Shown here: piece by piece, positions 22,085-53,025 of the stretch
Position numbering within the stretch: position 1 is the stretch's first letter
How the letters are laid out: each line of letters begins with the position of its first letter
DNA from: Cyanidioschyzon merolae
Taxonomy: Eukaryota
DNA length: 64,000 nt
Assembly: GCA_000091205.1 (NCBI GenBank)
Contig: AP006484.2
Reading direction: 5' to 3' (one strand)
The notes under the pieces: generated by a model
Databases searched by the model: none
What the model saw: the letters and a program-made list of their open reading frames with translations, nothing else
What the model was told of the DNA's origin: nothing
Program-made: the position numbers and the translations under genes

Positions 22085-22660
22085 GCTGGCCTATTTTTCA
22101 GATGACAAATCGTTTACATTGACCATGGATCGCAGCATTCGGAATGGAGAATGGCTTTCGGGAAAGCGTCCATCATGAAGCACCTCCCTTCAAGTTCCAT
22201 TACCAGTACTTCTTCTTATCAGATATACAGGTCGTTTCGTATGTTGTGTCGTGCGCCGAGCCTGCCGAAAGCGACAGCAATAGCGCATATACCGCTGAAG
22301 CAGGTGCGACACGGAGACAGAACGGCTTTGCCATTACCAATGAAAGCGTCGACTCGAGGCGTGGTTCCTCCGACATAGGGTCGGAGCACATAGTAATTCT
22401 GGGAGCCTGCAAGCTGCCCAGACGGACGTGCAACCTGCGACAGCGCGAAGCGATATACTAGGAGTCCGCTGCGACCAGGGCGACGCCCGGGCGCAGCATA
22501 ACTGCGCTTATTCCCGGAAGGAACTGTGTTGAGGACGAGCTGTTCATGTCTCGCCACAGCACCCGCCACTGGGGGAGCACGAAGCACGAGCCCGGGACAC
22601 TCGTCCGGCTCGCGGGGCCTTCTACCTAGAAGGTAAACTTTCGAAGATACGGGAACTTTT
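22085..22660 (-). repeat. Copy A of a ~590-bp non-coding repeat family (minus orientation), left arm of the head-to-head inverted pair
   Basis: Reverse complement is near-identical to 23428-24015. The track shows identical 122-aa and 105-aa artefactual ORFs on opposite strands in both arms, with one substitution (H/Y). Confidence 0.85.
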
Positions 22661-23427
22661 CACCGTTCCAACGCTCATTATCAAGGTCAAAAGAAACTGT
22701 TATCTAGTTGCTGGTCAGTGTTTAGTTTCTGTTCTTTCTTCCCTAGGAGAATGCTCTCTGCTCGCGGCCTGGCACAACTGGAGGGCCCACCAGTCCGAGG
22801 ACTAGCCTTTGTTGCCGCTGTTTCTATGCAAAGCTCTGCCGCGCGCGCTCCTTCTCTCTTTCTCTCTCTACATTCTCCTGTCCGCGCCCTTGGCCAAAAC
22901 TCTGAAAAGATATCGCTCGCGTCACTCGTGTTCCTATGTAGGGTATATAGATACGCACTCACAGACGCCTCCGGGCCTTTCCTTGACGGGCCGCGTGCTA
23001 CCGGATTCAGCTTCTCCTCGTACACTACGAGCCTGTCATCGTTTTCTGCTGCTGCCTCCGGCCCTCCGTTCGTTGCGGCCAAGGTCCCTGTCATGGGCTT
23101 CCTTCCCCGTCGCTCGAACACCCCGAGTGAACCCACTTTCAGAGCTTCGCCGAAACAACTAGACCTCTCAGACGGGGGTGGTGTGTGTGGGGCTTTAAGA
23201 TACTTGCTCTTTAGTACACAGTCTGTGGCTAGTTTGTTTTGTTGTTTTTTTCTTTTGTGTTTGGGCAGGTGTCTCCGTCTTGATTGGCTGCGTATCGATG
23301 AATATCACGCGTCGTGTCTCATGCCTGCCTGATCTCCCAGGCGCGCTCACCAAGCGAACTATAGAATCACGTACAGAGACTCATGACTAACGCGCAACGA
23401 TATGAAAATTTCCCCCTCTGAGCTAAA

Positions 23428-24015
23428 CGTTAAAAAGAGGAAAAGCTTCCCGTATTTCAGAAAGTTTACCTTCTAGGTAGAAGGCCCCGCGAGCCGGACG
23501 AGTGTCCCGGGCTCGTGCTTCGTGCTCCCCCAGTGGCGGGTGCTGTGGCGAGACATGAACAGCTCGTCCTCAACACAGTTCCTTCCGGGAATAAGCGCAG
23601 TTATGCTGCGCCCGGGCGTCGCCCTGGTCGCAGTGGACTCCTAGTATATCGCTTCGCGCTGTCGCAGGTTGCACGTCCGTCTGGGCAGCTTGCAGGCTCC
23701 CAGAATTACTATGTACTCCGACCCTATGTCGGAGGAACCACGCCTCGAGTCGACGCTTTCATTGGTAATGGCAAAGCCGTTCTGTCTCCGTGTCGCACCT
23801 GCTTCAGCGGTATATGCGCTATTGCTGTCGCTTTCGGCAGGCTCGGCGCACGACACAACATACGAAACGACCTGTATATCTGATAAGAAGAAGTACTGGT
23901 AATGGAACTTGAAGGGAGGTGCTTCATGATGGACGCTTTCCCGAAAGCCATTCTCCATTCCGAATGCTGCGATCCATGGTCAATGTAAACGTTTTGTCAT
24001 CTGAATAATCAGGTG
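23428..24015 (+). repeat. Copy B of the ~590-bp repeat family (plus orientation), right arm of the inverted pair
   Basis: Begins taaacgttaaaaagaggaaaagcttccc... and ends ...ggtcaatgtaaacgttttgtcatctgaataatc. The 5' end faces the 770-bp spacer, as does the 5' end of copy A. Confidence 0.85.
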
Positions 24016-24210
24016 CGCATCGGACACGTGCCTGTCACCTGTCCGCGCGCCGCAACGCCGGATCCGGATGCAGCGATACACGTCGCATAACCCGAGATGC
24101 GGGCGCTTATGCATCACTGCATACACGCATGACGGGCGTCCATGTAACACCGAACGCGCCTTTTTGTTCATTGTCTAGACGAGTTAAAAGGTTGATTATC
24201 CTGTGAATTG

Positions 24211-25158: not shown

Positions 25159-26674
25159 TGTCTACCAGGAATGACTGCGAACGGATCTGCCCTTTCCTGT
25201 ACAGGTATACTAGCGTCACGATTCAGACATCCGGATCGGTACTGTTGGGTTTTTTGTGTACGATTTTTGTCTAACCATTCCCCAGTCCATTACTCTGTGT
25301 ACGTGCTCATCATCTATAAAAGATCGCGTAGCGATGATTCAAACACAATCGGATAGGGCGAGCAGCCACAGCTCGGACCTGAACTCGGGGAGCGTTTTCA
25401 TGACGTATCGCGTACAGGCAGTCGCAGGTTTCGGGTCGACGATGAGATCGCAGCGCCGCAGCACCAGCGTCGGCACACCATTACGAAAACGGTGCTCGCA
25501 TCCACCGAAGCTTTCATGAAGGAACAGTGCGTCGCGGACGTCGTCGTTGCATGGCCTTTGGTGGAGTGCGTGCGCTTCAAGGTGTCAACGCGGCTGCCTT
25601 GTAAGCAACAAGCGCGCCCTATGCAGACGTTTGTGGGTACCTCAACTGCATCATGAGGTACACACAGCGACAGCCCTACTCCTGGGCGTTCGAACAGCCC
25701 ATACGACGTCGCCCGGTGGTGAACAGTAGTATATGCTTATCTTGGGTGTCCAGATTTGGCAGCGCACGTACCCGAATTCACTACAATTGCGAATGGATGC
25801 CCACGAGATATCGAGCCTAACGTAAGCATTTGGTCTTCATCATGCGAGAGTGATGCGTGGGACGAGAAGCTCCAGCTCGCATAGATGATGCTGATGCCGC
25901 ATTTTTCGTGCATAGAGCTCCTGTCCTGAGCGGATTCCTGCGAATACCGCAGCCCCCAGTTCAGTGTTTCCCCTCGGACCAGAGCTTTATTGGATCTAGC
26001 GATCCGCCCAGTGGCTCGTCCGCTGCGCACGACTCGAGGAGGCGGGGCGCTGTTTTGCTTTATACGGTTTTGCAATGATAAACCTAACGACGGATCCCTC
26101 TGATGCACCACAATTACCGGAATGAGGACGTATTTGCCTGCAGAGTGTCGGACACGTGTCCATCATCGATCGGAGTAGCGTCTCGCGCGGTGCACGCATT
26201 GCGCACCGTAAGCGCGCCTGGGAGATCGGGCAGTCAACTGACGCGACGCGCGTGCCGTTGTTGAAGGGAAATGGGATCCTGATCAGGAGCGTGTAGCTCT
26301 CTTTTAAAAGTTGTATTTCCGTTAACTTGCTAGGCAAGTGTAGTTTTTCAGCTCACTCGTGTTTCAAACCTCAAGTAAAAATATTCGATTGGGGTTTACC
26401 GGTTTATAACAGAAGCGTTCAAAAGCGTTTTTTTTCCAAAAAAAAAACTAAAAAAGGAAAGCTATGAAAAAAGTTGACGATCTTGGAGGCCCAGTGTCGC
26501 TGGCTGCCAGAAAAAAAAACAAAAACCAGTGCCGAGTACAGAAGAAAAGGAAGAGGAAAAGAAGCAAACAATTTAGAGGGCCTACGTCGTAGGCAGCAAG
26601 AAAGACGCCTGTACGACGAGACGGTGGTGAAAGTCTGTTTTCTTGAACATGACTAGGATCCGTACGATGAAAAG

Positions 26675-28697
26675 TTGCGAGACGCTATCAGAAACCATGT
26701 CGACTCGTTCGCCAAGAGTATTGTCAAGGCGTCGTCAGGATTGGTGCATTTGGCGAGGGAGATGCATTGCAACGTGACGCACATGGAAACGGTCGAGATT
26801 CCGAATGAGTTCTTCGATAAGACCTTTACTCGTCACCTGATGCTTGGTACAGAGGAAACGCGGAAGGAAAATGAGCTGGTGCAAATCCTCCACGAAAAAC
26901 ATCCCCTTTACAGCTTCAATGGTACTCGATACTAGGCTTACCGGGATATTTATCCATATGGGCCCATGAAGTACCCCACGAATCTGAAGGACCATTTGAC
27001 GGTGAACCTCGAACGTTTCATGATACGTGCCGTGGTTACACTCTACCTGGGCCTATCTCGCAATGGAAAATGGGCGATTATCAATGGCGTCACGAACGAC
27101 CGCAAGCGTGAAGATGAGGTCGAATTTGTCGACAAGAAGACATCACGCAGGAGCACGAATGAAGCTTCTGGAATCCGTGCGGTTACAGAAGAGCACCGTG
27201 CGGTACTGGGGTTGGTTCATCCAACAGACAAGATATCAGAGTTGAAAAAAGACAAGGAAAGATACTATCGCCTCGTCCTGCGATATTTCGTGTTTTTGGA
27301 CCGAGAACTCGAACACAAGGTGGAGATGAAGCTGAATGGCGAAAAATGAAGAGTGGGAGAGACCGAAGGCTTTCCTAAAGGGGAAGCGCTTAAACGTGGT
27401 TCCAATGTGCAACATCAGGTCACATTTCGTGACTATCGACTCCAGAATCCTTTACGGCATCATGAAAGGGATCAGTACCGTGTTCAATGTTAGCAGGGAA
27501 TACTTCACCGGCGAAAACCGGGAGACGTACTGGAAGAATATCTTCGATTTCAAACGCCTGAGAGTGAGCAAGCAGAAATTGTTCACTGGGATGATCGAAA
27601 GCGATGGAGTAGCCTTGTGTGTACACGATCGGCGGTTGAAGACAAATCGTCCAGTTCCGCCCTCGGTCTCGCCCGTGCCGAAGCGTGAAGAAAAGGAGGC
27701 GGATCCTGTGACGCAGGAGGTGGAGGATAACGACCTTGTCGTTGATGCGGTGAAGCATGAAGAAAACAAGCAGGCGGATCCTGAGACGCAGAAAGTGCAT
27801 AACAACGACTTTGTCGTTGGCGCGGACCCCGGAAACACAAATATCATAACCATCGCAGTACCCAAACGTGCGGAGGATTGTACTGACGGTAACTTACGTC
27901 AGAAAGACATACGTATTTTTAAGTTCTAAAGATAGAGGCATTACCGAGAATCCGGTATAATAAATGCGAAGAAGAAAATCGGGACATGGAATGCAGGAGT
28001 CAAAGAGCACCTTGAAGCTTTGAGCGAGGTGACGAGCCGCGGAATAGACTTTCAAACTTTTCGGGAGTTCATGAAAGTTCTCGTTCCTCATTGGTAGGCG
28101 CTGTGGGAGGCGTATACAAAGCCCCGGTGGGCTCGTCTGCGTATGAACGTTTACTGCGGGAAACAGCGTGCATTCGCGAACTTTTTCAATGAGTTGAGTG
28201 CCTTCACAGATGATGAAAGTCACAGGCTCGTAGTAGCGTACGGAGCAGGGCGCTGGGCGTCGAGAACAGGTACTACGCCAGTTCCGTCAACAAGAACGTA
28301 CAAGGAGTGCGCGAGGCATTTTGCCGCAATGCCTGTACATGTGTTCCGAACATCGTATACACACCACGACTTGGAGTGCACACTTCTGAAAGTCGAGGTG
28401 GAAAAGTGCCAGCGGAGCCCGGAGGATATCAAATTGTACGGACCGCTGAAGGAAGAGCAAATGGAAAGCAGGGCAAAACTTCGAGAGCTACTTGCGCTTG
28501 TGTGCACAACCAATGATGGCAAGAAACGTATAAAATTCCTGTATCGCGACTTTAAGGCCGCTATCAATATGAGGACATGTGCAGTGCTGGAGAACAGAGC
28601 TCCGGAATGGACAGGAGGGAATTTGTGGGGCAACATCTCAAAGTGGAACTATATGAGAAACAATTGGAACCATTCGTACGTGACCGGTCGAGGATAA
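26675..28697 (+). pseudogene. Pseudogenised TnpB/Fanzor-like nuclease ORF (copy 1)
   Basis: Frameshifts between the N-terminal fragments. In-frame TAA AGA TAG at 27927-27935 (shared with copy 2). Copy-specific TAG at 28095-28097 where copy 2 has GAT. Confidence 0.5.
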
Positions 28698-28812
28698 CTG
28701 GGAAGCGTCTGCACCTCAGTGGATGACCTCGTGTCTGGGGCGCGTCACTCGCCAATATTCTACTCCGCTGGCGGCAGCGTTTTTCTTCTGAAAGGCGTTT
28801 GTTGTTGCTGGC
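26675..28812 (+). mobile_element. Degenerate TnpB/Fanzor-like (RuvC-fold, OrfB_IS605-type) element, copy 1, including the conserved 115-bp 3' flank; 5' boundary uncertain (could extend to ~26400)
   Basis: Fragmented ORFs at 26675-26935, 26966-27349, 27336-27929 and 27936-28697 are co-linear with paralogous fragments at 50918-52555 (minus). RuvC-I-like [16 protein letters not shown] (Asp codon ~27825). RuvC-III-like RDFKAAINM (~28549). Zn-ribbon-like FRTSYTHHDLEC. Reconstructed protein ~670 aa. Homology with copy 2 continues 115 bp past the stop, to ~28812. Confidence 0.5.
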
Positions 28813-28815
28813 GAT

Positions 28816-30543
28816 ATGCTCAGGTGGTCCGGATCTCAACAGGTAACCGACCGGAACCGAGCCGAACAGCATGGCCTGGTCGTGGCGTTCGCTTTTCCTG
28901 CTCGAGCACCGCGCCACAGCGAAGCAACACACGAGCGCTGGACTGGGCTGGCGCAGCGCGAACGCGGCTTGTGTGTACCGTTGAAAGCGACCAAGTGGAA
29001 ACGAGACTTGTGGCACTCGCGAAAGCTTCAAATGCAGGAGCCTGCACAGCGGAACAGAGAGCAGGTGCAAGCGCTAGTAGTAGGCTCTGGAGTGACTGGC
29101 TCTTCGTTCGCGTTCCTGCTGCAGCACGCTGGAATAAGCGATGTGATTTGCACCGAGGCACGAGGTGAAGTTGGTGGAAACCTTATTTCGCGTTCCAAAG
29201 ACGGCTACCTTTGGGAAGAAGGGCCCAACACCTTCCAACCAACACCGGTGATTCTGAAACTCGCGCGAGACGCGGGTCTCGAGTCCGAGCTTGTCTTCGC
29301 CGACGCCAAACTCCCTCGATACGTATACTGGGAGGGGGTTTTGCACGCGCTCCCGAGTTCGCCTGCAGACCTGATCACCGGCCGTTTCCGCCTGTTATCG
29401 AATGCGGGGAAGGCTCGGGCAGCGCTCGGAGCGCTCGGGTTCGTAGGCGCACCCAAACGCGTCGCACGGCAAGCTGGACCCGAGCCCAGCGAGGATGCTG
29501 ACCTAGCAGACGAGTCTGTAGAGGAATTCGTGACTCGCCATCTAGGCCGCGAAGTTTTCCTGAAGATTATAGACCCCTTCGTGAGCGGTGTGTATGCAGG
29601 CGATCCCAGCAAACTCTCCATGGCTGCAGCTTTCAAGCGCGTGTACGCACTCGAGCAGCTTGGCGGAACACGCGGGATTCTCGAAGGGGCGCTCATCCGT
29701 CTGCAACAACGTCGACGGGAACGTCAACGCTGGGCGGCAGAGAATCTCCCCAAGGTGAAAGCGGGTGCACTGGGCTCCTTCCGCGAGGGCCTGCAGCAGT
29801 TGCCGCTCACAGTGGCGACTCGGCTGGGCCCTGAGCGAATGCGAACTCGGTATGCACTGCGCCAAATTGAATACAATGGAGCAAAACGTGGAAAACGTCG
29901 CTATACTGCCCGCTTCGAAACCCCAGATGGCGAACGAGTTATCGAAACAGATGCCCTCATTCTTACGATCCCCGCACATGCGGCGTCACCGCTCTTGCAA
30001 GGTCTGGGTGTCTCTGGGAGTGAGCTGCTCCAGGAAATCGACTTTCCGCCGGTATACTCGGTAACTTTGGCATACCCAAAGTTTGCAGCGCGGTTTCCCC
30101 TAAACGGTTTCGGGAACCTGATACCGCGCTCTGCCGGTATTCGCACCCTCGGGATGGTCTGGTCGTCGAGTTTGTTTCCGGAACGAGCGCCTCCCGATAT
30201 GAATATGGTGCTCTCATACATCGGCGGTGCGCGTGATCCTGGTATCCGCGAATGCACCCCGGATGAAGTCGCTGCCCTCGTAGACGCGGACATGCGTCGC
30301 GTCCTCCTACGTGCCGATGCACCTTCGCCGCAAGTTCTTGGTGTGAGACTTTGGCCGCGGGCGATTCCACAATACAACCGGGGTCACTTGCGGCGCTTGG
30401 AAGCCTGCAACCAGGGTCTACAAGGCTTTCCTGGTCTCTTTTTAGGCGGAAACTATCTGAGTGGCGTTTCCTTCGGTGACTGCGTACAGTGGGCGTACGA
30501 TAATGTGCCTCGAGTGCTGACGTTTCTGCAGGAGACGGCTTGA
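28816..30543 (+). CDS. PPOX: Protoporphyrinogen IX oxidase (HemY-type, FAD amine-oxidase fold)
   Basis: ALVVGSGVTGSSFAFLLQHAGISDVICTEARGEVGGNLIS (dinucleotide-binding GxGxxG), ...YLWEEGPNTFQP..., and a conserved C-terminal HemY-like region. The first ATG at 28816 gives a ~72-aa leader (possible transit peptide); an alternative ATG is at 29032. Confidence 0.8.
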   Translation: MLRWSGSQQVTDRNRAEQHGLVVAFAFPARAPRHSEATHERWTGLAQRERGLCVPLKATKWKRDLWHSRKLQMQEPAQRNREQVQALVVGSGVTGSSFAFLLQHAGISDVICTEARGEVGGNLISRSKDGYLWEEGPNTFQPTPVILKLARDAGLESELVFADAKLPRYVYWEGVLHALPSSPADLITGRFRLLSNAGKARAALGALGFVGAPKRVARQAGPEPSEDADLADESVEEFVTRHLGREVFLKIIDPFVSGVYAGDPSKLSMAAAFKRVYALEQLGGTRGILEGALIRLQQRRRERQRWAAENLPKVKAGALGSFREGLQQLPLTVATRLGPERMRTRYALRQIEYNGAKRGKRRYTARFETPDGERVIETDALILTIPAHAASPLLQGLGVSGSELLQEIDFPPVYSVTLAYPKFAARFPLNGFGNLIPRSAGIRTLGMVWSSSLFPERAPPDMNMVLSYIGGARDPGIRECTPDEVAALVDADMRRVLLRADAPSPQVLGVRLWPRAIPQYNRGHLRRLEACNQGLQGFPGLFLGGNYLSGVSFGDCVQWAYDNVPRVLTFLQETA

Positions 30544-35173: not shown

Positions 35174-35596
35174 GAGTGGGCAGCAGAGCGCGCTTCAGCG
35201 TAACCTGCGTGGACGCTCACGGCATCCAGCTCTGTCGAGCGCTGTTTGCTCGCTGGTCACGAAACGCTCGAGCGCTTGCGCCTTACGGCGACTCGCGGGT
35301 CTCGAGCTTCGGTAGTCACTGTGATAGCGTTCAGACAAAAACCTGATGAAAAACTTGCACACCGATCTGGTCGAAGCGGAGAAGCTCAGCGGCGTTATGA
35401 GGGAGAGGAATCCCGTCTGTAAAGTCAGGTACGATGCGGATGGTGAGCCATTCTGGTCTTTCAAGTAAATTTTATTGCACCATTGCTGCAGTGTATAGCC
35501 GGAGATCGAAACCACGATGCAACGTACCGTATCGAAAACGAACAGACACGAACTTTTACATGGTAACGAGATAACAATTTCGTTCGACCTGTGCGG

Positions 35597-36190
35597 TAAA
35601 CGTTAGAGGGGAAAGCTTTCCGAATCGTCGAAAGTTTGCGTTCAGAGCGAAAGGTCCCTAGAACTGTACGAGTCTGCAGGGCTAGTGCTTCATGCTCTCA
35701 CAAGTGGCTGGTGCTTTGGCGAGACGTAAGCAAATCGTCCGCAACAAAGGTTATTCTGGGACTAGGAGGGGGTAGGCTGTGTCGGGGCGTCGCCCTGGTC
35801 GCAGTGGACTCCTAGTACATCGCTTCGGGCTACAGGCAGTAGGTCTGTCTCCGCAGCTTCCTGGCTCCCGGCATGCTTATGTACTTCGACCCTCTGTCCG
35901 GTGAGCCACGCCACGCGGAGATGCCCGCAGTGGTATGGCAACGCCGTACAGTGTCCTTGATGCATCCGCTCCAGCGGCATAACTGCTATTACGAATGCAG
36001 CAGGGGAGGTACTCGGTGCAAGATAGAACGTATGGAACAACCAGTACATCCGAAAGGAAGTATACACAATGGGAATTGCAGCTAGGGTGCAGCATGATAG
36101 ACACTTTCCCCAAAGCCAATACCCATGCATTCCGCATCCTGGAATCCAAGGTCAACGTAAACGTTCTGTCATCGGCAAATAATCCGTTGC
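35597..36190 (+). repeat. Copy C of the ~590-bp repeat family (diverged, plus orientation)
   Basis: Shares with copy B the 5' block taaacgtta..gaaagctttcc..gaaagttt, a 33-mer gggcgtcgccctggtcgcagtggactcctagta (1 mismatch), GTGCTTC.TGCTC...AGTGGC.GGTGCT.TGGCGAGAC, ggaggtactcggtgca, atccgaaaggaagt, and the 3' block ggtcaacgtaaacgttctgtcatcgg.aaataatcc. Confidence 0.75.
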
Positions 36191-36198
36191 GGTCTTAT

Positions 36199-36625
36199 CC
36201 ATCCTGTCTATGATATCCAATATTATACGTTTTCAGAATCTTCCTCGATGCAGCGTGTCCATAGAGCTCACTGCCATCCTGTCTATAATGTCCAATATTA
36301 ATCGTTTTCAGAACCTTCCTCGTTGCAGCGTGTCGATGGCGCTCACTGCCATCCTGTCTATAATGTCCAATATTATCCCTATTCAGAACCTTCCTGAATG
36401 CAGCGTGTCGATGGCGCTCACTGCCACCCTGTCTATAATATCCAATATTATCCCTATTCAGAATCTTCCTCGATGCAGCGTGTCGATGGCGCTCACTGCC
36501 ATCCTGTCTATAATATCCAATATTATCCCTATTCAGAATCTTCCTCGATGCAGCGTGTCGATGGCGCTCACTGCCATCCTGTCTATAATATCCAATATTA
36601 TCCCTATTCAGAACCTTCCTCGATG
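36199..36625 (+). repeat. 75-bp minisatellite, ~5.7 tandem units, immediately 3' of repeat copy C and in frame with the bromodomain ORF
   Basis: Unit cagcgtgtcgatggcgctcactgccatcctgtctataatgtccaatattatccctattcagaaccttcctgaatg (75 bp = 25 codons). The track ORF translates MQRVDGAHCHPVYNIQYYPYSESSS three times. Confidence 0.9.
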
Positions 36626-38632
36626 CAAGTCCCCGCGCCATTCCCGCATACTCCGCTGCGCCCTCTGGTTCGTATTTGCGACGTGCAGCGCACCAGTTCC
36701 ACCTGGATGCGTCGTACCCGCCAGCATGCACCCTTTGCTGGTAACAGTATATCCTATAGCGCTCGGGAAGATGACGGTTTCCCCGATAGAGAGGATCCCG
36801 GCGATCTCGCCCTCCCGGACGACAGCTGGTCGGCGACGGGCGACGACACCGAGTCCAGTGCAGCGACGACTCGGCGCCAGCGGGTAACGCGGCGGCGAGG
36901 TCGGGCTTCGTCTCCGAGCACCGACACCAGTGAGCCTGCGCGTCAACGACAGCGACGCTCGCGCACCTCTCACATCAGTGTCGGTGACGAGTCCGGACAA
37001 CGACCGACTATCCGGACGCGCTCGGCATCGTCGCTAGAAGCAGGCGGCGTGCCCCGAGCCACTTCATCTGATCAGGATACGTTTCGGAATACCGTGGCTA
37101 TTCTCATTGAGCAGGTACGGCAGCATGATCGTTATGGGTTCTTCTGTGCCCCGGTTGATCCGGAGGAGGCGCCTGACTATCACGAAGTGATCCCAGAGCC
37201 GATGGATCTCGGTACCATGCAGAGGAAGCTCGAGACAGGCAAATATCGGCGCCTCGACGAAGTTGAGCGTGACCTAGATCTTATCTGGCGCAACTGTTTC
37301 ACATATAATCCAACAAATAGCATTTACTACCGCGAGGCGGCACGAATGCAAAAGTGGGCGCTGAAACGGGTCCAGTGGGCGCGTCAGCGACTCTGCGGCA
37401 TTACGGGAGCGCCCAGTCCCGCCGAAGGACAAAGCTTCAGTACGTCAACGCATTCTCGTGATGAAAAGGTACAGCACACCCATTCGAGGATGGTGAAAGG
37501 CGTATCGCGTGGGTCCGCGGTGGCTCTGGACTCGGCACCGCGGATGACGGTACGACTCCAGACAGAACGTCATCGGGACCCGGCTGCAGTGCCCGGCACG
37601 AGCTCGGAGCTGCCTACCGCAACCGAAACTGAAGGCAAACCGAAACCCGTTGCCGAAATGGATGTTGTTCTGGATGAGGCGCTGGACCCAGAGGCATCGT
37701 ATGCGGTGGCAGCGCAGGACCCTGGCGCCTTTATCGAGCGCGTATGGCGAGCGTTCGTGACTCGCCAAGAGCGCTTGCGTATCGAGAAGGAGCACGAACG
37801 ACTGTATCACTATCCGCGTCACAGTTCGGAGGGCGAGCGTGCTGCTGCTGACCTAGCCAGGACGATGCTTTCGCAATGGCTCGGGAAAACGATCAAACGG
37901 GCTCCGAACGATGCGGAGAAATATTTGCTGGAAATTCTTTCCGCTGCAGAGCTACCCGCCGAAACTCTCCAGCGAATGGCAACAGCATTCACGAGTCAGC
38001 AGCAGAACGGAGCAACTGCAGCAGCATCTGTTGAGGAAAACCCGTCTTTGAAGTCGAGGCCTACAGTCGGACGTGGTACACATGCAGCCGCTTCGCATGA
38101 CGATGCCCAGACCCGAGGAGCGAGTGCTTCAGCAACGGACGACTCGCCCGAGACATCAAAGGACGCGTTCATCGCCTCGCGTTGGTATGCCTTGCGACGC
38201 TCTCTTGCAGCGCTCCGGTTGGCCCAGATACAGAACGCACCCCTTTCCGAGCAACTCCGCCGCTATGATACGGTGCTCGCGCTCCTAGCACGCCAGTTGG
38301 AGACCATCCCGCCACGATTGCTCTTAGCCGAGGGTGGAGTCGAGAGCATCCGCGCATTTGCGCAGCGCCTTGTCCAATATGAAGATTCTCGTGCCGAAGA
38401 CGCAACGCCAAATGCTGAGAGTTCTGGACAAACACCGATGGCGAGTGATCCAGATGCGACGCAGCCGCAAAAGGGTGCTACAGATGGCCATAGCGTCGGT
38501 CATCACCCGGCAGCGACACCAGGAGCCGCTCATGCAAACGATGGGGGCGCTCAGACGGATCGCCCGCATGACATCAAAGTCGACGGCGTTTTTTCTGCGG
38601 GGAACGCAACTATGCTCAGACCGCAGGTTTAG
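36398..38632 (+). CDS. Bromodomain-containing protein (start codon uncertain; N-terminus may include minisatellite-encoded 25-aa repeats)
   Basis: Bromodomain FFCAPVDPEEAPDYHEVIPEPMDLGTMQRKLETGKYRRLDEVERDLDLIWRNCFTYNPTNSIYYREAARMQKWA (conserved Y...N pair). Alternative ATGs lie downstream of the repeats (~36623, ~36695). Confidence 0.7.
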   Translation: MQRVDGAHCHPVYNIQYYPYSESSSMQRVDGAHCHPVYNIQYYPYSESSSMQRVDGAHCHPVYNIQYYPYSEPSSMQVPAPFPHTPLRPLVRICDVQRTSSTWMRRTRQHAPFAGNSISYSAREDDGFPDREDPGDLALPDDSWSATGDDTESSAATTRRQRVTRRRGRASSPSTDTSEPARQRQRRSRTSHISVGDESGQRPTIRTRSASSLEAGGVPRATSSDQDTFRNTVAILIEQVRQHDRYGFFCAPVDPEEAPDYHEVIPEPMDLGTMQRKLETGKYRRLDEVERDLDLIWRNCFTYNPTNSIYYREAARMQKWALKRVQWARQRLCGITGAPSPAEGQSFSTSTHSRDEKVQHTHSRMVKGVSRGSAVALDSAPRMTVRLQTERHRDPAAVPGTSSELPTATETEGKPKPVAEMDVVLDEALDPEASYAVAAQDPGAFIERVWRAFVTRQERLRIEKEHERLYHYPRHSSEGERAAADLARTMLSQWLGKTIKRAPNDAEKYLLEILSAAELPAETLQRMATAFTSQQQNGATAAASVEENPSLKSRPTVGRGTHAAASHDDAQTRGASASATDDSPETSKDAFIASRWYALRRSLAALRLAQIQNAPLSEQLRRYDTVLALLARQLETIPPRLLLAEGGVESIRAFAQRLVQYEDSRAEDATPNAESSGQTPMASDPDATQPQKGATDGHSVGHHPAATPGAAHANDGGAQTDRPHDIKVDGVFSAGNATMLRPQV

Positions 38633-44431: not shown

Positions 44432-44937
44432 CAAAACCCACGACACTCAGGATAGTACAGTCTTGTGTGGCTTGCTTCGAGCGCTCTCGCGCCCACTGTT
44501 CAGCGTTCGGGCTGGAGAGGCGGCGCGGCTCAGGTGTGATGCCCCGAGGTCGCCACGCTGCCTCTCCCTGCAGGAGAGTAACTCCGTTCGAAGGGTTTCG
44601 AGCCTTCAATTGCCCTGCAAATCAAAAGCAAAGTCCTGCCCCGCGCCAGAGACGCTGCAGTGAAACGTCTGCGCCGCGTCCTGGAAGCTCACCGGCGGGA
44701 GACACCGAGCGCACGCGCGTTGGCGCCTAGTCCAACGATGAACCCTAATCTTGTTCGACGCTGGCGAAGAACTCTCCAACACTTTAGCGCTCCAGCAAGC
44801 GAACTTGCCGCCGTTTGCCTCTGAAAGAAACGTCCTAGTAGTGAGCTCGTGGAGCACGATTGCTATGAAAGTCGACGTTGGCCAGCACGACTGATACGGA
44901 TCCAGCCTCGCGTTCGGGTCAGCCAAGTAACCCGGAT

Positions 44938-45101
44938 GCGATAAACTGTATACATAGGGATGAAATGGGACAGAATTCTCCTCTTCGTCACCTGAACGCC
45001 AACTTGATTGCTAAACGATGCGATAAACTGTATACATAGGGATGAAATGGGACAGAACTCTCCTCTTCTTCACCTGAACGCCAACTTGATTGCTAAACGA
45101 T
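44938..45101. repeat. Tandem duplication, 2 x 82 bp
   Basis: gcgataaactgtatacatagggatgaaatgggacagaa(t/c)tctcctcttc(g/t)tcacctgaacgccaacttgattgctaaacgat occurs twice back-to-back. Confidence 0.9.
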
Positions 45102-48923: not shown

Positions 48924-50438
48924 ATGATAGGCACAGGCTACGTGGGGTTGGTGTCAGGTGCGTGCTTCGCGGACGCCGCGCACTGCTGTGTCGTCTGCGT
49001 GGACTCGAACGCTCAGAAGATCGACGCGCTCAAGCGGGGTGAAATGCCGATTTTCGAGCCAGGCCTCGCCGACCTGGTTCGAAGGAACGTTCAAGAAGGA
49101 CGTCTGAGCTTCTCGACTGACCTCGCTGCAGCCGTTCGCGACGCGCAGATCGTGTTCATCGCTGTTGGAACGCCATCTCGTCGAGGTGACGGTCACGCCG
49201 ACCTCAGTTACGTATTCCGTGCTGCAGAGGCGATTGGGAAAAGCCTCCGATCGCCAGGTTTTACCTTGATTGTGAACAAGTCGACGGTGCCGGTGGGCAC
49301 TGCACGACGCGTACGCGAACTCGTTCAGCGAAACTGCGCCCCTGGCGCGAGCTTTGAGGTTGTCAGCAACCCAGAATTCCTACGTCAGGGTACAGCGGTT
49401 CAGGATTTCATGTACCCGGAACGTGTGGTCATTGGCATGTGGGAAAACCGGTTTCAACGGCAGCATGAATGCACTGCGTTTAGGTCAGCGCCGCTCCATC
49501 TTCATGAGCGTCGTTTCGTGGCGGATACAGAGCCCGGGTTCGATACACGCAAAAACGCGCAGACGCTCATGACACAGCTGTATACGCCCATTGCGCGAAT
49601 CAGTGGAGCACCCGTTCTTTTCACGAATGTGGAGGAAGCCGAATTGGTCAAGTACGCTGCAAACGCTTTCCTGGCTATGAAACTCGAGTTCGCGAATGAA
49701 ATTGCGGACTTGTGTGAGGTTGCCGGTGCCGACATCAGCGTGGTCACGCATGCCATTGGCCTCGATGCTCGCATCGGACCAGACTATCTGCAGGCTGGGC
49801 CGGGCTTCGGTGGCTCATGTTTGCCAAAGGACACACGAGCCTTAGCGCGGATCGCACAGGAGTTGTGGCGTCCGTGTCGCCTCGTGGAGACAGTCATCGA
49901 GGGCAACGAGGCGCGAAAACGGCGGATTGCCCAGAGAATTGCCCTCGCAGTCGTTGGTAACAGCGCTGACATGAATCACGTCTACGGGCGATGTATTGGG
50001 GTGCTCGGTCTGACATTCAAGGCACACACGGACGATACTCGTGACTCACCTGCAGTGTTTATTGTGCGAGAGCTAGTGGAACTTGGGGCCAAGGTGCGAG
50101 CATACGACCCCCAAGCGAATCATCGAGAAGTGCATCAAATACTGGGGGAAGATGTCGAACTCGTCTGCAGTGCACAGGAAGCAGCCCGAGGCGCCGATGT
50201 GCTCGCGGTCCTCACAGAGTGGCCCGAAATTCGTCAAGCTTGCGACGCGCTCGGGCCAGAAGGACTAGGGAGCCTGATGCGTCACCGTGTTATCTTCGAC
50301 GCACGAAACCTCTGGAGACCAGAGGACTGGCTCCATAGCGGCTTTACCTACCATTCCATTGGGCGTCCCACTATTTATGCCGACACCGCTGCCTCGTTCG
50401 CAGACGCCTCCGTACATACGACTCAACGGTTGCGCTGA
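48924..50438 (+). CDS. UGD: UDP-glucose 6-dehydrogenase, bacterial-type (UDPG/GDP-mannose dehydrogenase family)
   Basis: MIGTGYVGLVSGACFADAAHCCVVCVDSNAQKIDALKRGEMPIFEPGLADLV, IVFIAVGTP, catalytic GGSCLPKDTRALA, C-terminal UDP-binding domain. The core starts at the ATG at 48924. The upstream in-frame ATG at 48648 would add a ~92-aa leader; the track start at 48585 is TTG. Confidence 0.8.
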   Translation: MIGTGYVGLVSGACFADAAHCCVVCVDSNAQKIDALKRGEMPIFEPGLADLVRRNVQEGRLSFSTDLAAAVRDAQIVFIAVGTPSRRGDGHADLSYVFRAAEAIGKSLRSPGFTLIVNKSTVPVGTARRVRELVQRNCAPGASFEVVSNPEFLRQGTAVQDFMYPERVVIGMWENRFQRQHECTAFRSAPLHLHERRFVADTEPGFDTRKNAQTLMTQLYTPIARISGAPVLFTNVEEAELVKYAANAFLAMKLEFANEIADLCEVAGADISVVTHAIGLDARIGPDYLQAGPGFGGSCLPKDTRALARIAQELWRPCRLVETVIEGNEARKRRIAQRIALAVVGNSADMNHVYGRCIGVLGLTFKAHTDDTRDSPAVFIVRELVELGAKVRAYDPQANHREVHQILGEDVELVCSAQEAARGADVLAVLTEWPEIRQACDALGPEGLGSLMRHRVIFDARNLWRPEDWLHSGFTYHSIGRPTIYADTAASFADASVHTTQRLR

Positions 50439-50777
50439 GTCGCCTGTCGCGCTCGTTGCTTCTGCAACGCCGTCCGTCGCAGTCGCTTCTCCGTGTTGCT
50501 TTCGAAGAACTGTCGACGCTTCACTTCCTGCAGGATGCCGGCTTTCACCACCTCCTTCTTAAACCTTCTCAGCGCACTATCGACGGGTTCTCCCGGGTTC
50601 ACGAGCACCCGAACCCGCATCTCAATTGACGTGTCACTCGCCGGTCGCTGACATGTCGGAGCACAGGTGCCGACCCCACGCCCCGCGACAAACGAATGAT
50701 AGGGCACAGCAGCTATCTTGGAAGCAGTTAACGTAACGAACATGGGTTTAATCTTTGAAAACTCGTCGCTTGTAATG

Positions 50778-52690
50778 CGGTGCCAACGACGAACGCTTCA
50801 GAAGTCGAAAGCAGTCGCCGTCACGGGTACAGTAGTGGCGGCGAACGCGCCTTGGACAAATTGGCTCCAAATGACGTGCAGATGCTTCCTAGGCTTTCTC
50901 GCCCGGCCACCTCCAACTTATTCCAACTGTTTCTCATATAGTTCCACTTTTAATGATTGTCTAACAAAGTTCTCTCTTGTCCATTCTGAAGGTCTTCTCT
51001 CCAGCACCGCGCTTGTCTTTACATTGATAAGGGCGTTCAAGTTTCGATTTGCAAACTCCATACGGTTGTAGCCGTTGGGAGTTGTCCTCATCAGTGCAAG
51101 CAAACCTCGAACTTTCGCACTCCTTTCCATTTGCTCTACCGTCAGCGGTCCGTACTTTGCTAGTTCCTCAGGGCTCCGTTGGCACTTTTCCATCTCCTCC
51201 CTCTGAGGTGTACACCCCAGTTCATGGTGTGTATACGATGTTCGGAACTCGTCTACAGGTATTGTGGCAAAACGCCTCGGGCACTGCTTGTACGTTCTCG
51301 TCGTTGGAGCTGGAGTAGTCCCTTTTTGTGTCTTCCATCGGCCTGCTCCGTACGCTACAACGAGCCTTTGACCCTCGTCCTCCTTCGGGGCGCTCAACTG
51401 ATTGAAAAAGTTGGCGAACGCCCGCTGCTTACCGCAATACAGATTTATTCGCAAACGAGCCCACCGGGGCTTGGTATACTCCTCCCACAGCGCATCCCAA
51501 TGGGCAACACGAACTTCCATGAATTTCCGAAAAGCTGTAAAGTCCGCCCCGCGGCTCGTCACCTCGCTCAAAGCTTCCAGGTGATCCTTCATTCCTGCAT
51601 TCCATGTCTCGATTTTTTCCTCGCATTCATTATAACGGATTCGCGGTAATGTCTCTATCTTTAGAACTGAAAAAGACGCATGTCGTTCTGACGTAAGTTG
51701 CCGTCAGTACCATCTTCCCCACATTTGGGTGCTGCAATGGCTATGATATTTGTGTTCCCGGGGTCTGCGTCAACGATAAACTCGTTATCCTCTACCTACT
51801 GCGTCGCAGGATCCTCCTCCTTCTCATCTTCATGCTTCGCCGAAGGCAAAGCCGCGGGCGGAACATGGCGATCCGCCTTCAACCGCCGATAGCGTACACA
51901 CGTTGCCACTCCATCGGTTTCGATCATCCCAGTGAATGCCTTTTGTTTGCTCGCTTTCAGAAGTTTGAAACTGAAGATGTTCTTCCAGTACGTCTCCCGG
52001 TTTTCGCCGGTGAACTCCTCCCTGTTCACATCGAACTCCGGACAGATAACCCTCATGATGCCATAAAGGACTCTGGAATCGATAGTCATAAAATGTGACT
52101 TGATATTGCACATTGGAAACATGTTGCAGCGCTTACCCATTACGAAAGCCTTCCGTCTCTCCCACTCTTCATTTTTTCCTCACTCAGCTTCATCTTCGCA
52201 TTGCGTTCGAGTTCTCGGTCCAGATACTCGAAATACCGCAGGATGAGATAATAGTATCTTTCCGTATCTTTTTCCAAGTATGATATCTTTTCTGCTGGAT
52301 TCGCCAGCCCCAAGTCTGCGCGATGCTCTTGTCTAACTGCACGGATCTCAGAAGCTTCATTATTTCTCCTGTGTCATGTCTTCTTGTCGACAAATTCGAT
52401 CTTTCCTTCGTTCTTACTATCGTTCGTGATGCCATTGATGATGGCCGATCTCTTTCCTCTGGAGAGAGACCTCGGTACCGTGCAAACACGGTGCGTATCA
52501 TGATATGTTTCAGGTTCACAATCACACTGAGCTTCAGGCTCATGAGGTACTGCATCGCCCCGTCACAGTTGATTCTGGGACTCGGAGCGGGTAGCCTGCG
52601 TCTTGGCGTCGAGCTGGTTCATTTGGAATCCCAGGACCTCGTTTCGTGCAGCCACATCAAGTATGTCTGTCTGCACAACTTGTAGGCTCT
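50778..52690 (-). mobile_element. Degenerate TnpB/Fanzor-like element, copy 2 (minus strand), 5'-truncated, including the conserved ~140-bp 3' flank
   Basis: Fragments 52190-52555, 51796-52140 and 50918-51592 are paralogous to copy 1 (e.g. [70 protein letters not shown]). 3'-flank homology runs to ~50778. 5' homology with copy 1 is lost at ~52690. Confidence 0.5.
50918..52555 (-). pseudogene. Pseudogenised TnpB/Fanzor-like nuclease ORF (copy 2)
   Basis: Premature TAG (GAG in copy 1) near 51797. The same in-frame TAA AGA TAG as copy 1 near 51655-51666. A 1-nt deletion relative to copy 1 just downstream. N-terminal truncation. Confidence 0.5.
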
Positions 52691-52719
52691 CAGAATGATC
52701 ATCACCCCCGATCCCGTAT

Positions 52720-53025
52720 TGAATGCATCAAGCCTCCAGCCGACGTCTGCAGCGGTATGGCAAAGCTATTTTGCCGCTGTGATGCATTGGCATCAGCGGT
52801 GTAGGCGCTACGGCGGGTGCAGCAACGGAGGTACTCGGCGCATGATACAACGTACAAAACCACCAATAGATCCGAAAGGAAGTGAAACTAATGCAACTTG
52901 CAGGTAGAGTGAAGAATAATGAGCGTTTTCATTGATTTCAATATCCATCCTGCAAACTGGAATCCCAGGTCAACGCAACGATATTGTCATCGAAAGAAAT
53001 CGGACGACCAGCGTAATATGCGCCG
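52720..53025 (+). repeat. Copy D of the ~590-bp repeat family: 3' ~310-bp fragment, abutting the truncated 5' end of TnpB-like copy 2
   Basis: Aligns to the 3' half of copy C: cagcggtatggcaa, gatgcat, ggaggtactcggcgca, aacgtacaaaaccacc..atccgaaaggaagt, ggaatcccaggtcaacgcaacgatattgtcatcg. Confidence 0.65.

Follow-up and report, generated by a model that had tools for sequence, protein, structure and literature searches.

The 115-bp flank at 28698-28812 of a 64,000-nucleotide stretch of Cyanidioschyzon merolae DNA (here called the window) is the 3′-terminal module of a CMe-1A Fanzor1 copy that is now dead, and ancestrally it was most probably, at a probability of roughly 0.7, part of the scaffold of a Fanzor1 omega RNA. 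Such a scaffold would most probably have served the Fanzor1 nuclease, the 15-20 nt of flanking sequence beyond it acting as guide, and probably doubled as the right end of the transposon. What is new here is the candidate scaffold of the family, a corrected end of its ORF and a bias in the placement of right ends beside host start codons. This red-algal Fanzor1 family has been on record since 2013 and now has its first concrete candidate for an omega RNA scaffold, whose consensus sequence and covariance model, together with the corrected ORF end, are directly testable.

Two ORFs of the window, encoding PPOX (28816-30543) and a bromodomain protein (36398-38632), are exact matches to C. merolae 10D BAM78848.1 and BAM78851.1, the loci of which lie on a 457-kb chromosome. 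Self-BLASTN pairs two element copies, copy 1 (26960-28807, + strand) and copy 2 (52561-50784, − strand), at ~78% identity over ~1.85 kb (E = 0). BLASTN against 80 metagenome loci extends copy 1 leftwards to a homology limit at ~26128-26150, and family comparison sets its right limit at ~28802-28814, giving a decayed element at 26130..28814 (+). The exact left terminus of copy 1 was not fixed by the BLASTN comparison with these loci, as 5′ regions vary by subfamily; the 5′ region of copy 1 is either subfamily-specific or truncated. Its broken Fanzor1 coding remnants, identified from the ORF list and three-frame translation, occupy 26474..28697 (+), in pieces at 26474-26656, 26675-26935, 26966-27349, 27336-27929 and 28143-28697. 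Copy 2 (50784..52561, −, from self-BLASTN and translation) is likewise decayed, carries an internal 5′ deletion and is preceded by a TE-N2_CMe-like 5′ segment at 52564-52992 (−). Three-frame translation reveals TnpB/Fanzor-like motifs in both copies, broken by frameshifts and in-frame stops, two of which (F-stop-R-stop-RHYRES, at ~27927 in copy 1) are common to copies 1 and 2, which therefore descend from an already defective source. In copy 2 the RuvC-III motif RDFNAA is replaced by NRNLNA, with loss of the RuvC-III Asp; copy 1 retains both Asp motifs, yet its ORF is broken. The acidic linker of the Fanzor ORF contains a ~72 bp internal tandem duplication at 27680-27825 (KHEE.K.ADP.TQ.V.DND repeats), the units of which differ in number between family members (e.g. 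P0011 and P0007).

Copies 1 and 2 are both dead and belong to CMe-1A, which Bao and Jurka described in 2013 as a non-autonomous Fanzor1 (TnpB-like) family of C. merolae with ~150 genomic copies of ~3 kb each and ~80% identity to the consensus, some of them still intact; the family has no TIRs, its TSDs were left undetermined, and its 5′ 635 bp are common to TE-N2_CMe (PMC3627910). Together with these reported genome copies, the two in the window and 348 related stretches found in a metagenome scan, from which 80 loci were retained, identify CMe-1A as a multi-copy mobile element. The reconstructed protein has 107 homologues, with identities of up to ~73-80%, nearly all from JGI hot-spring metagenomes. 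Neither the window ORFs nor the family proteins matched any Fanzor or TnpB model in Pfam, and a sequence search of the PDB returned SpuFz1 at a borderline E = 0.077, so a structure-based search was needed. An AF2 model of the 752-residue family member P0004 (pLDDT 69.5, pTM 0.59) was therefore compared with the PDB using Foldseek, and the top seven matches were all Fanzor1 structures (SpuFz, PpFz and GtFz; E = 1.5e-14 to 1.4e-11, TM up to 0.64). As modelled, the family protein adopts the Fanzor1/TnpB fold (WED-REC-RuvC-TNB), and three nearly invariant residues in the family alignment A6, D484 (DPG), E656 (DEFRTS) and D725 (RDFNAA), are candidate RuvC acidic residues.

The original prediction held that similarity between the copies continues past both stop codons and then ends abruptly, and both points are borne out. 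The copies align to ~28807-28814 (copy 1) and ~50784-50778 (copy 2) before diverging, and all three shared blocks that had been quoted, GGAAGC(G/A)TCTGCAC.TCA, GGCGCGT..C.CGCC and CTTCTGAA.GCGTT.GT.GTTG, are found in both. The family alignment gives 26/41 identical positions across 28698-28738 and 44/65 across 28739-28802, or 74/111 (67%) for 28698-28807 overall, as against only 6/14 across 28803-28816. The further idea that the tail had been conserved on otherwise decaying paralogs does not hold, since an identity of 67% in the tail compared with 71-78% in the ORF leaves no conserved island. The boundary recurs throughout the family: in a set of 65 unique tails from metagenome loci (47 at <96% mutual identity), all 65 keep similarity to the equivalent of ~28800, beyond which the flanks are unrelated. 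Two of these metagenome copies (L062 and L006) have ...TGCTGG(T/C)GA(T/C) in common before diverging, and by comparison with them the element may extend to ~28814-28815, which would place a GT-rich terminal stretch (TTGTTGCTGGCGAT) and the host junction at 28803..28815 (+). The module thus has the layout of a scaffold, being encoded in the sense orientation across the ORF 3′ end and the right end, kept among copies to a sharp boundary and followed by a copy-specific flank. No solo tails were found in the window, where the covariance model described below matches only the two known copies.

Where coding sequence ends within this module can be read from the family. The modal stop is a TAG 29 codons after the LYE anchor, present in 25/65 tails, with many others reading to or through this point, and the modal ORF ends in the LYE frame with ...EAVVGGRSKKTGRRLHVSWRRFV followed by the stop. 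No intact ORF ending at the modal stop was found among the 80 metagenome loci. The equivalent position in copy 1 is 28736-28738, where it reads TGG, and the stop codons of copies 1 and 2 are non-homologous and both secondary. It follows that 28698..28738 (+) is ancestral C-terminal coding sequence, and that the ~65-75 nt from 28739 to ~28814 were ancestrally non-coding. The 115-bp flank, initially taken to be non-coding throughout, is therefore ancestrally coding in its first 38 nt (about one third) and non-coding in the remaining ~65-75 nt. A general caution for annotation is that stops in decayed copies misplace the end of the coding sequence.

The consensus module spans ~135-145 nt, comprising the last ~22 Fanzor1 codons and ~65-75 nt of non-coding right end; the sequences folded here were the overall consensus (131 nt) and the consensus of the type I subfamily (130 nt). 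The predicted sense fold is a long imperfect rod closed by CAGUAGUGG/CCACUACUG (CAGUAGU(G)GG/CCACUACUG), then a terminal hairpin, after which the family consensus continues into a short GU-rich tail and the unrelated flank. The hairpin occurs as type I (CGUUCGA/UCGAACG), type II (CGUUUUUC/GAAAGACG) and a variant (CGUUCUA/UAGAACG), which differ in sequence with pairing preserved. As RNA, the overall consensus has an MFE of -51.1 kcal/mol (z = -2.79) and the type I consensus one of -62.9 kcal/mol in the sense direction (z = -4.60, with 0/200 shuffles as good), compared with -38.7 kcal/mol for its antisense (z = -1.55). Six real copies range from -46.3 to -56.6 kcal/mol (z = -1.45 to -4.44), and two ORF control segments gave -26.5 and -31.6 kcal/mol (z ~ +0.5). 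The strand asymmetry, together with the many G-U pairs, favours an RNA read in the ORF sense.

Could the tail instead be a cis-acting end at the DNA level only, its hairpins recognised by a trans-acting transposase in the manner of IS200/IS605 or of a Helitron 3′ hairpin, with no guide role? We consider this unlikely. CMe-1A has neither TIRs or TSDs nor a transposase of its own (PMC3627910), the hairpin lies 12-20 nt from the 3′ terminus, and the type I sense strand folded as DNA still beats shuffles (-26.1 kcal/mol, z = -2.41), all of which would suit such an end; this role would also be compatible with that of a scaffold, as right end and omega RNA coincide in TnpB elements. Against it, the signal is far stronger with RNA parameters and strand-specific, with many G-U pairs, the structured module reaches ~66 nt into the ORF, distant from the terminus, and the element encodes a Fanzor1, for which use of such an RNA has been demonstrated. 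Nor are Helitron-type ends (5′-TC, CTRR-3′) evident: the family ends lack a consistent CTRR terminus, at the left a T-run stands in place of TC, and the element contains no transposase ORF. We regard as very unlikely a second alternative, that the tail serves the Fanzor mRNA as its 3′ UTR, or by terminating or stabilising the transcript, and has no part as a guide; the tail does lie directly 3′ of the modal stop, and its hairpin is followed by a U-rich stretch, but half of the structured module falls within coding sequence, nothing resembling an A-rich polyadenylation signal occurs, and conservation stops exactly at the element boundary, as for a scaffold-guide junction.

Folding the tails for covariation supported the terminal hairpin and not the rod. 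RNAalifold on MAFFT alignments of the tails returned zero pairs and no consensus structure, likely a result of random pair-breaking in decayed copies and of the differing registers of the two hairpin subfamilies. In an alignment made with the covariance model, cells changed on both sides of a pair number 60, compared with 32.6 +/- 4.6 in shuffles, none of 500 of which reached 60; this alignment was fitted to the model structure and the copies are related, so the shuffle controls overstate significance. Double changes affect 5/6 pairs of the hairpin core, and compensatory changes are confined to the terminal hairpin. Covariation in the rod is not above shuffles (80.7% paired versus 80.4%), and support for the rod is purely thermodynamic, resting on the consensus sequence. 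A search of Rfam gave no relevant match in 26000-29200 at E <= 10.

As an omega RNA-like scaffold, then, the module stands at the level of the family, where a right-end module with a sharp boundary, structure on the sense strand and the anatomy of Fanzor1 omega RNAs come together, and not at the level of the window copies. The covariance model (R1) places the scaffold relic of copy 1 at 28671..28803 (+; 40.9 bits, E = 7e-6), consisting of a rod remnant at ~28671-28763 (+) and the terminal hairpin at 28774-28802 (+), the sole surviving part of the fold, and that of copy 2 at 50781..50919 (−; 51.1 bits, E = 5e-8). Each of the 81 R1 hits belongs to a different Fanzor copy and is on the same strand as its ORF, and the scores of the window copies are the lowest among them, tied only with two metagenome copies of the copy-1 locus (L076 and L085). 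Their folds are no better than shuffles (z = -0.55 for copy 1 and -0.16 for copy 2), and with their ORFs dead both copies are relics. With the ORFs broken, the rod unfolded and the tail decaying at the rate of the ORF, likeness between the tails reflects common descent and not present function, a reminder for annotation that likeness between dead paralogs is no evidence of current function.

Present omega RNA function of either window copy is accordingly not likely. It is highly improbable, and the least credible of the alternatives weighed here, that the window tails are still functional omega RNA genes under selection, used in trans by an intact Fanzor1, with the guide of copy 1 covering the PPOX start codon. 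Intact CMe-1A copies have been reported (PMC3627910), the copy 1 tail has no segregating sites in 7 strains and its terminal hairpin is intact; set against this are the collapse of the rod in both copies, their low covariance-model scores, a tail identity between copies 1 and 2 that is no higher than that of the ORF, and SNPs in the copy 2 tail.

At the other end of the element, a ~600-650 bp repeat that is probably TE-N2_CMe occurs in the window at 22093-22740 (+), 23415-24017 (−), 35565-36191 (−) and 52564-52992 (−), two TE-N2_CMe-like copies forming an inverted pair 98.6% identical and ~780 bp apart. In the metagenome loci, many Fanzor copies have this sequence as their 5′ part. Left ends of the TE-N2 type open with ...A followed by TTTTTTC(G/A)ATGACAAAACGTTTAC, the sequence that precedes the T-run being unrelated, as seen in the window at 22093-22100 and at 29 left ends in the loci (e.g. 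L048:1215 and L043:1030). This T-run could be the terminus of the element or a T-rich target/TAM-like motif, and some right ends (GGCGTTTGTTTCC) resemble it. Two tandem repeats were also noted in the window, one at 36199-36627 (period ~75 bp, 89.9-93.5% identical) overlapping the start of the bromodomain ORF, and a second of ~82 bp at 44935-45101.

The suggestion that the element sits directly on the PPOX 5′ end is upheld, as copy 1 ends 1-8 nt before the ATG at 28816. The PPOX gene (28816..30543, +) encodes 575 aa, identical to BAM78848.1 (Pfam Amino_oxidase, E = 2.9e-55), of which residues 1-72 are a probable transit peptide. Its closest annotated orthologue, Cyanidiococcus P0138, begins at the equivalent of Met73. 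In a Cyanidiococcus locus (L086) and in a third lineage (L087) the PPOX frame is open for >70 codons upstream and contains a conserved VAF..P motif and basic residues, as in a red-algal transit peptide; this open frame and motif in two sister lineages suggest that the ATG at 28816 is probably genuine. In Cyanidiococcus yangmingshanensis JANCYV010000019.1 (L086:4767-5000), the PPOX annotation (503 aa) is probably missing the transit peptide: the frame continues open upstream, where an in-frame ATG occurs 78 codons earlier and the conserved VAF..P motif is present. The insertion is present upstream of PPOX in all of the close C. merolae strains (L001-L005), and in L086 and L087 there is no Fanzor between the upstream gene and PPOX. 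Reconstruction of the exact pre-insertion site was ruled out, the intergenic DNA of L086 and L087 being unalignable.

Because the insertion moved the ancestral upstream DNA 2.7 kb away, the PPOX 5′ UTR and core promoter are expected within the 3′ part of the relic, and from this geometry we infer that its last few hundred bases carry the 5′ UTR and probably the core promoter. Across 7 C. merolae-like strains no segregating site falls within 28605-28911 (307 nt), a zone made up of the final ~210 nt of the relic plus the first 96 nt of PPOX; elsewhere in the relic there are ~1.7-2 segregating sites per 100 nt, so that ~5 would be expected here among the 7 strains, a contrast that was noticed after looking at the data and comes from a small sample. 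A zone of low polymorphism was not replicated beside copy 2, where 2 SNPs fall in the tail in a comparison of only 2 strains. The SNP-free zone fits a promoter/5′ UTR role of the relic and is suggestive.

Copy 2 has a similar setting, its right end being followed after 37 nt, on the same strand, by a gene for ribosomal protein S21 (bS21; 50423..50743, −, 106 aa; Pfam Ribosomal_S21, E = 2.1e-15) with a transit-peptide-like N-terminus, MFVTLTASKIAAVP (MFV...). An exact-sequence look-up of S21 found only two short metagenome or read-assembly contigs (Logan, JGI) and none of the NCBI genome records, so in the C. merolae annotation the gene may be missing or begin at a different start. For 47 non-redundant copies in loci L006-L085, we counted same-strand, ATG-initiated ORFs of at least 120 aa downstream of the right end, with random intergenic positions in the same loci as control. 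Such an ORF starts within 100 nt in 22/47 copies (47%; control 7.9%) and within 60 nt in 17/47 (36%; control 4.5%), an excess with a binomial p of ~1e-12, and for ~7 copies the distance from terminus to ATG is no more than ~10 nt. The ORFs so placed come from unrelated genes of the host, among them Tim17, an HCO3- transporter, a methyltransferase and a COPI-associated protein. Left ends have no start-codon bias (2/23).

We tentatively suggest that CMe-1A is inserted or retained in one orientation, with its right end ~0-100 nt from a co-oriented host start codon (PPOX, bS21 and others), though the odds are somewhat against it. One possible cause would be IS200/605-like insertion 3′ of a T-rich core-promoter motif; another would be better retention where the guide targets an indispensable site at which imprecise repair is lethal. 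If the placement reading is true, a copy so placed would have an omega RNA guide extending over the 5′ UTR and start codon of the host gene, and after death of the nuclease the relic right end would serve as the 5′ UTR and core promoter of the gene. A genome-wide bias of this kind would be informative about how Fanzor elements select or retain their insertion sites, and about the recruitment of transposon ends as 5′ UTRs and promoters of essential genes such as PPOX in a very compact genome.

The window copies agree with CMe-1A as originally described in organism, membership of a multi-copy family, ~3 kb length and lack of TIRs, and the reported 5′ part common to TE-N2_CMe has its counterpart in the TE-N2-like repeats in the window and 5′ of copy 2; that description predates the discovery of omega RNA and says nothing of a structured 3′ module, of where the ORF truly ends or of a placement beside start codons (PMC3627910). 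As with the omega RNA or reRNA of TnpB elements (IS200/IS605 and IS607), the putative guide RNA overlaps the 3′ end of the nuclease ORF and the right end, the guide would be flanking DNA, TSDs are absent and insertion would be orientation-specific at a short motif. Unlike TnpB elements, CMe-1A resides in a eukaryotic host and contains no TnpA, and its TAM is a candidate only, namely the T-run that always precedes a TE-N2-type left end.

The closest comparison is with the Fanzor1 systems SpuFz1 and GtFz1. In the SpuFz1 omega RNA the stretch from the stop codon to the right end supplies a scaffold of 75 nt, to which a guide of 14-15 nt is added, and the GtFz1 scaffold overlaps the last 17 codons (PMC10432273), with two stem-loops preceding the guide (PMC10432273; PMC11423790); Fanzor1 omega RNAs have a 5′ stem-loop, then one to three more stem-loops before the guide (PMC11423790). 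CMe-1A differs from these in a protein identity of only ~14%, in a 5′ stem that is predicted as a ~30-bp rod rather than the 7-bp SL1, in the lack of flanking inverted repeats, and in that the window copies are dead. The protein fold nevertheless matches (Foldseek E = 1e-14), and the candidate scaffold, like those of SpuFz1 and GtFz1 (Saito et al. 2023, PMC10432273; Xu et al. 2024, PMC11423790), occupies, in sense orientation, the 3′ end of the ORF together with the right end. The CMe-1A tail combines a coding end, as in the ORF overlap of GtFz1, with non-coding sequence like the ~75 nt after the SpuFz1 stop, and its predicted stem-loops are followed by a variable flank, which in SpuFz1 and GtFz1 is the guide.
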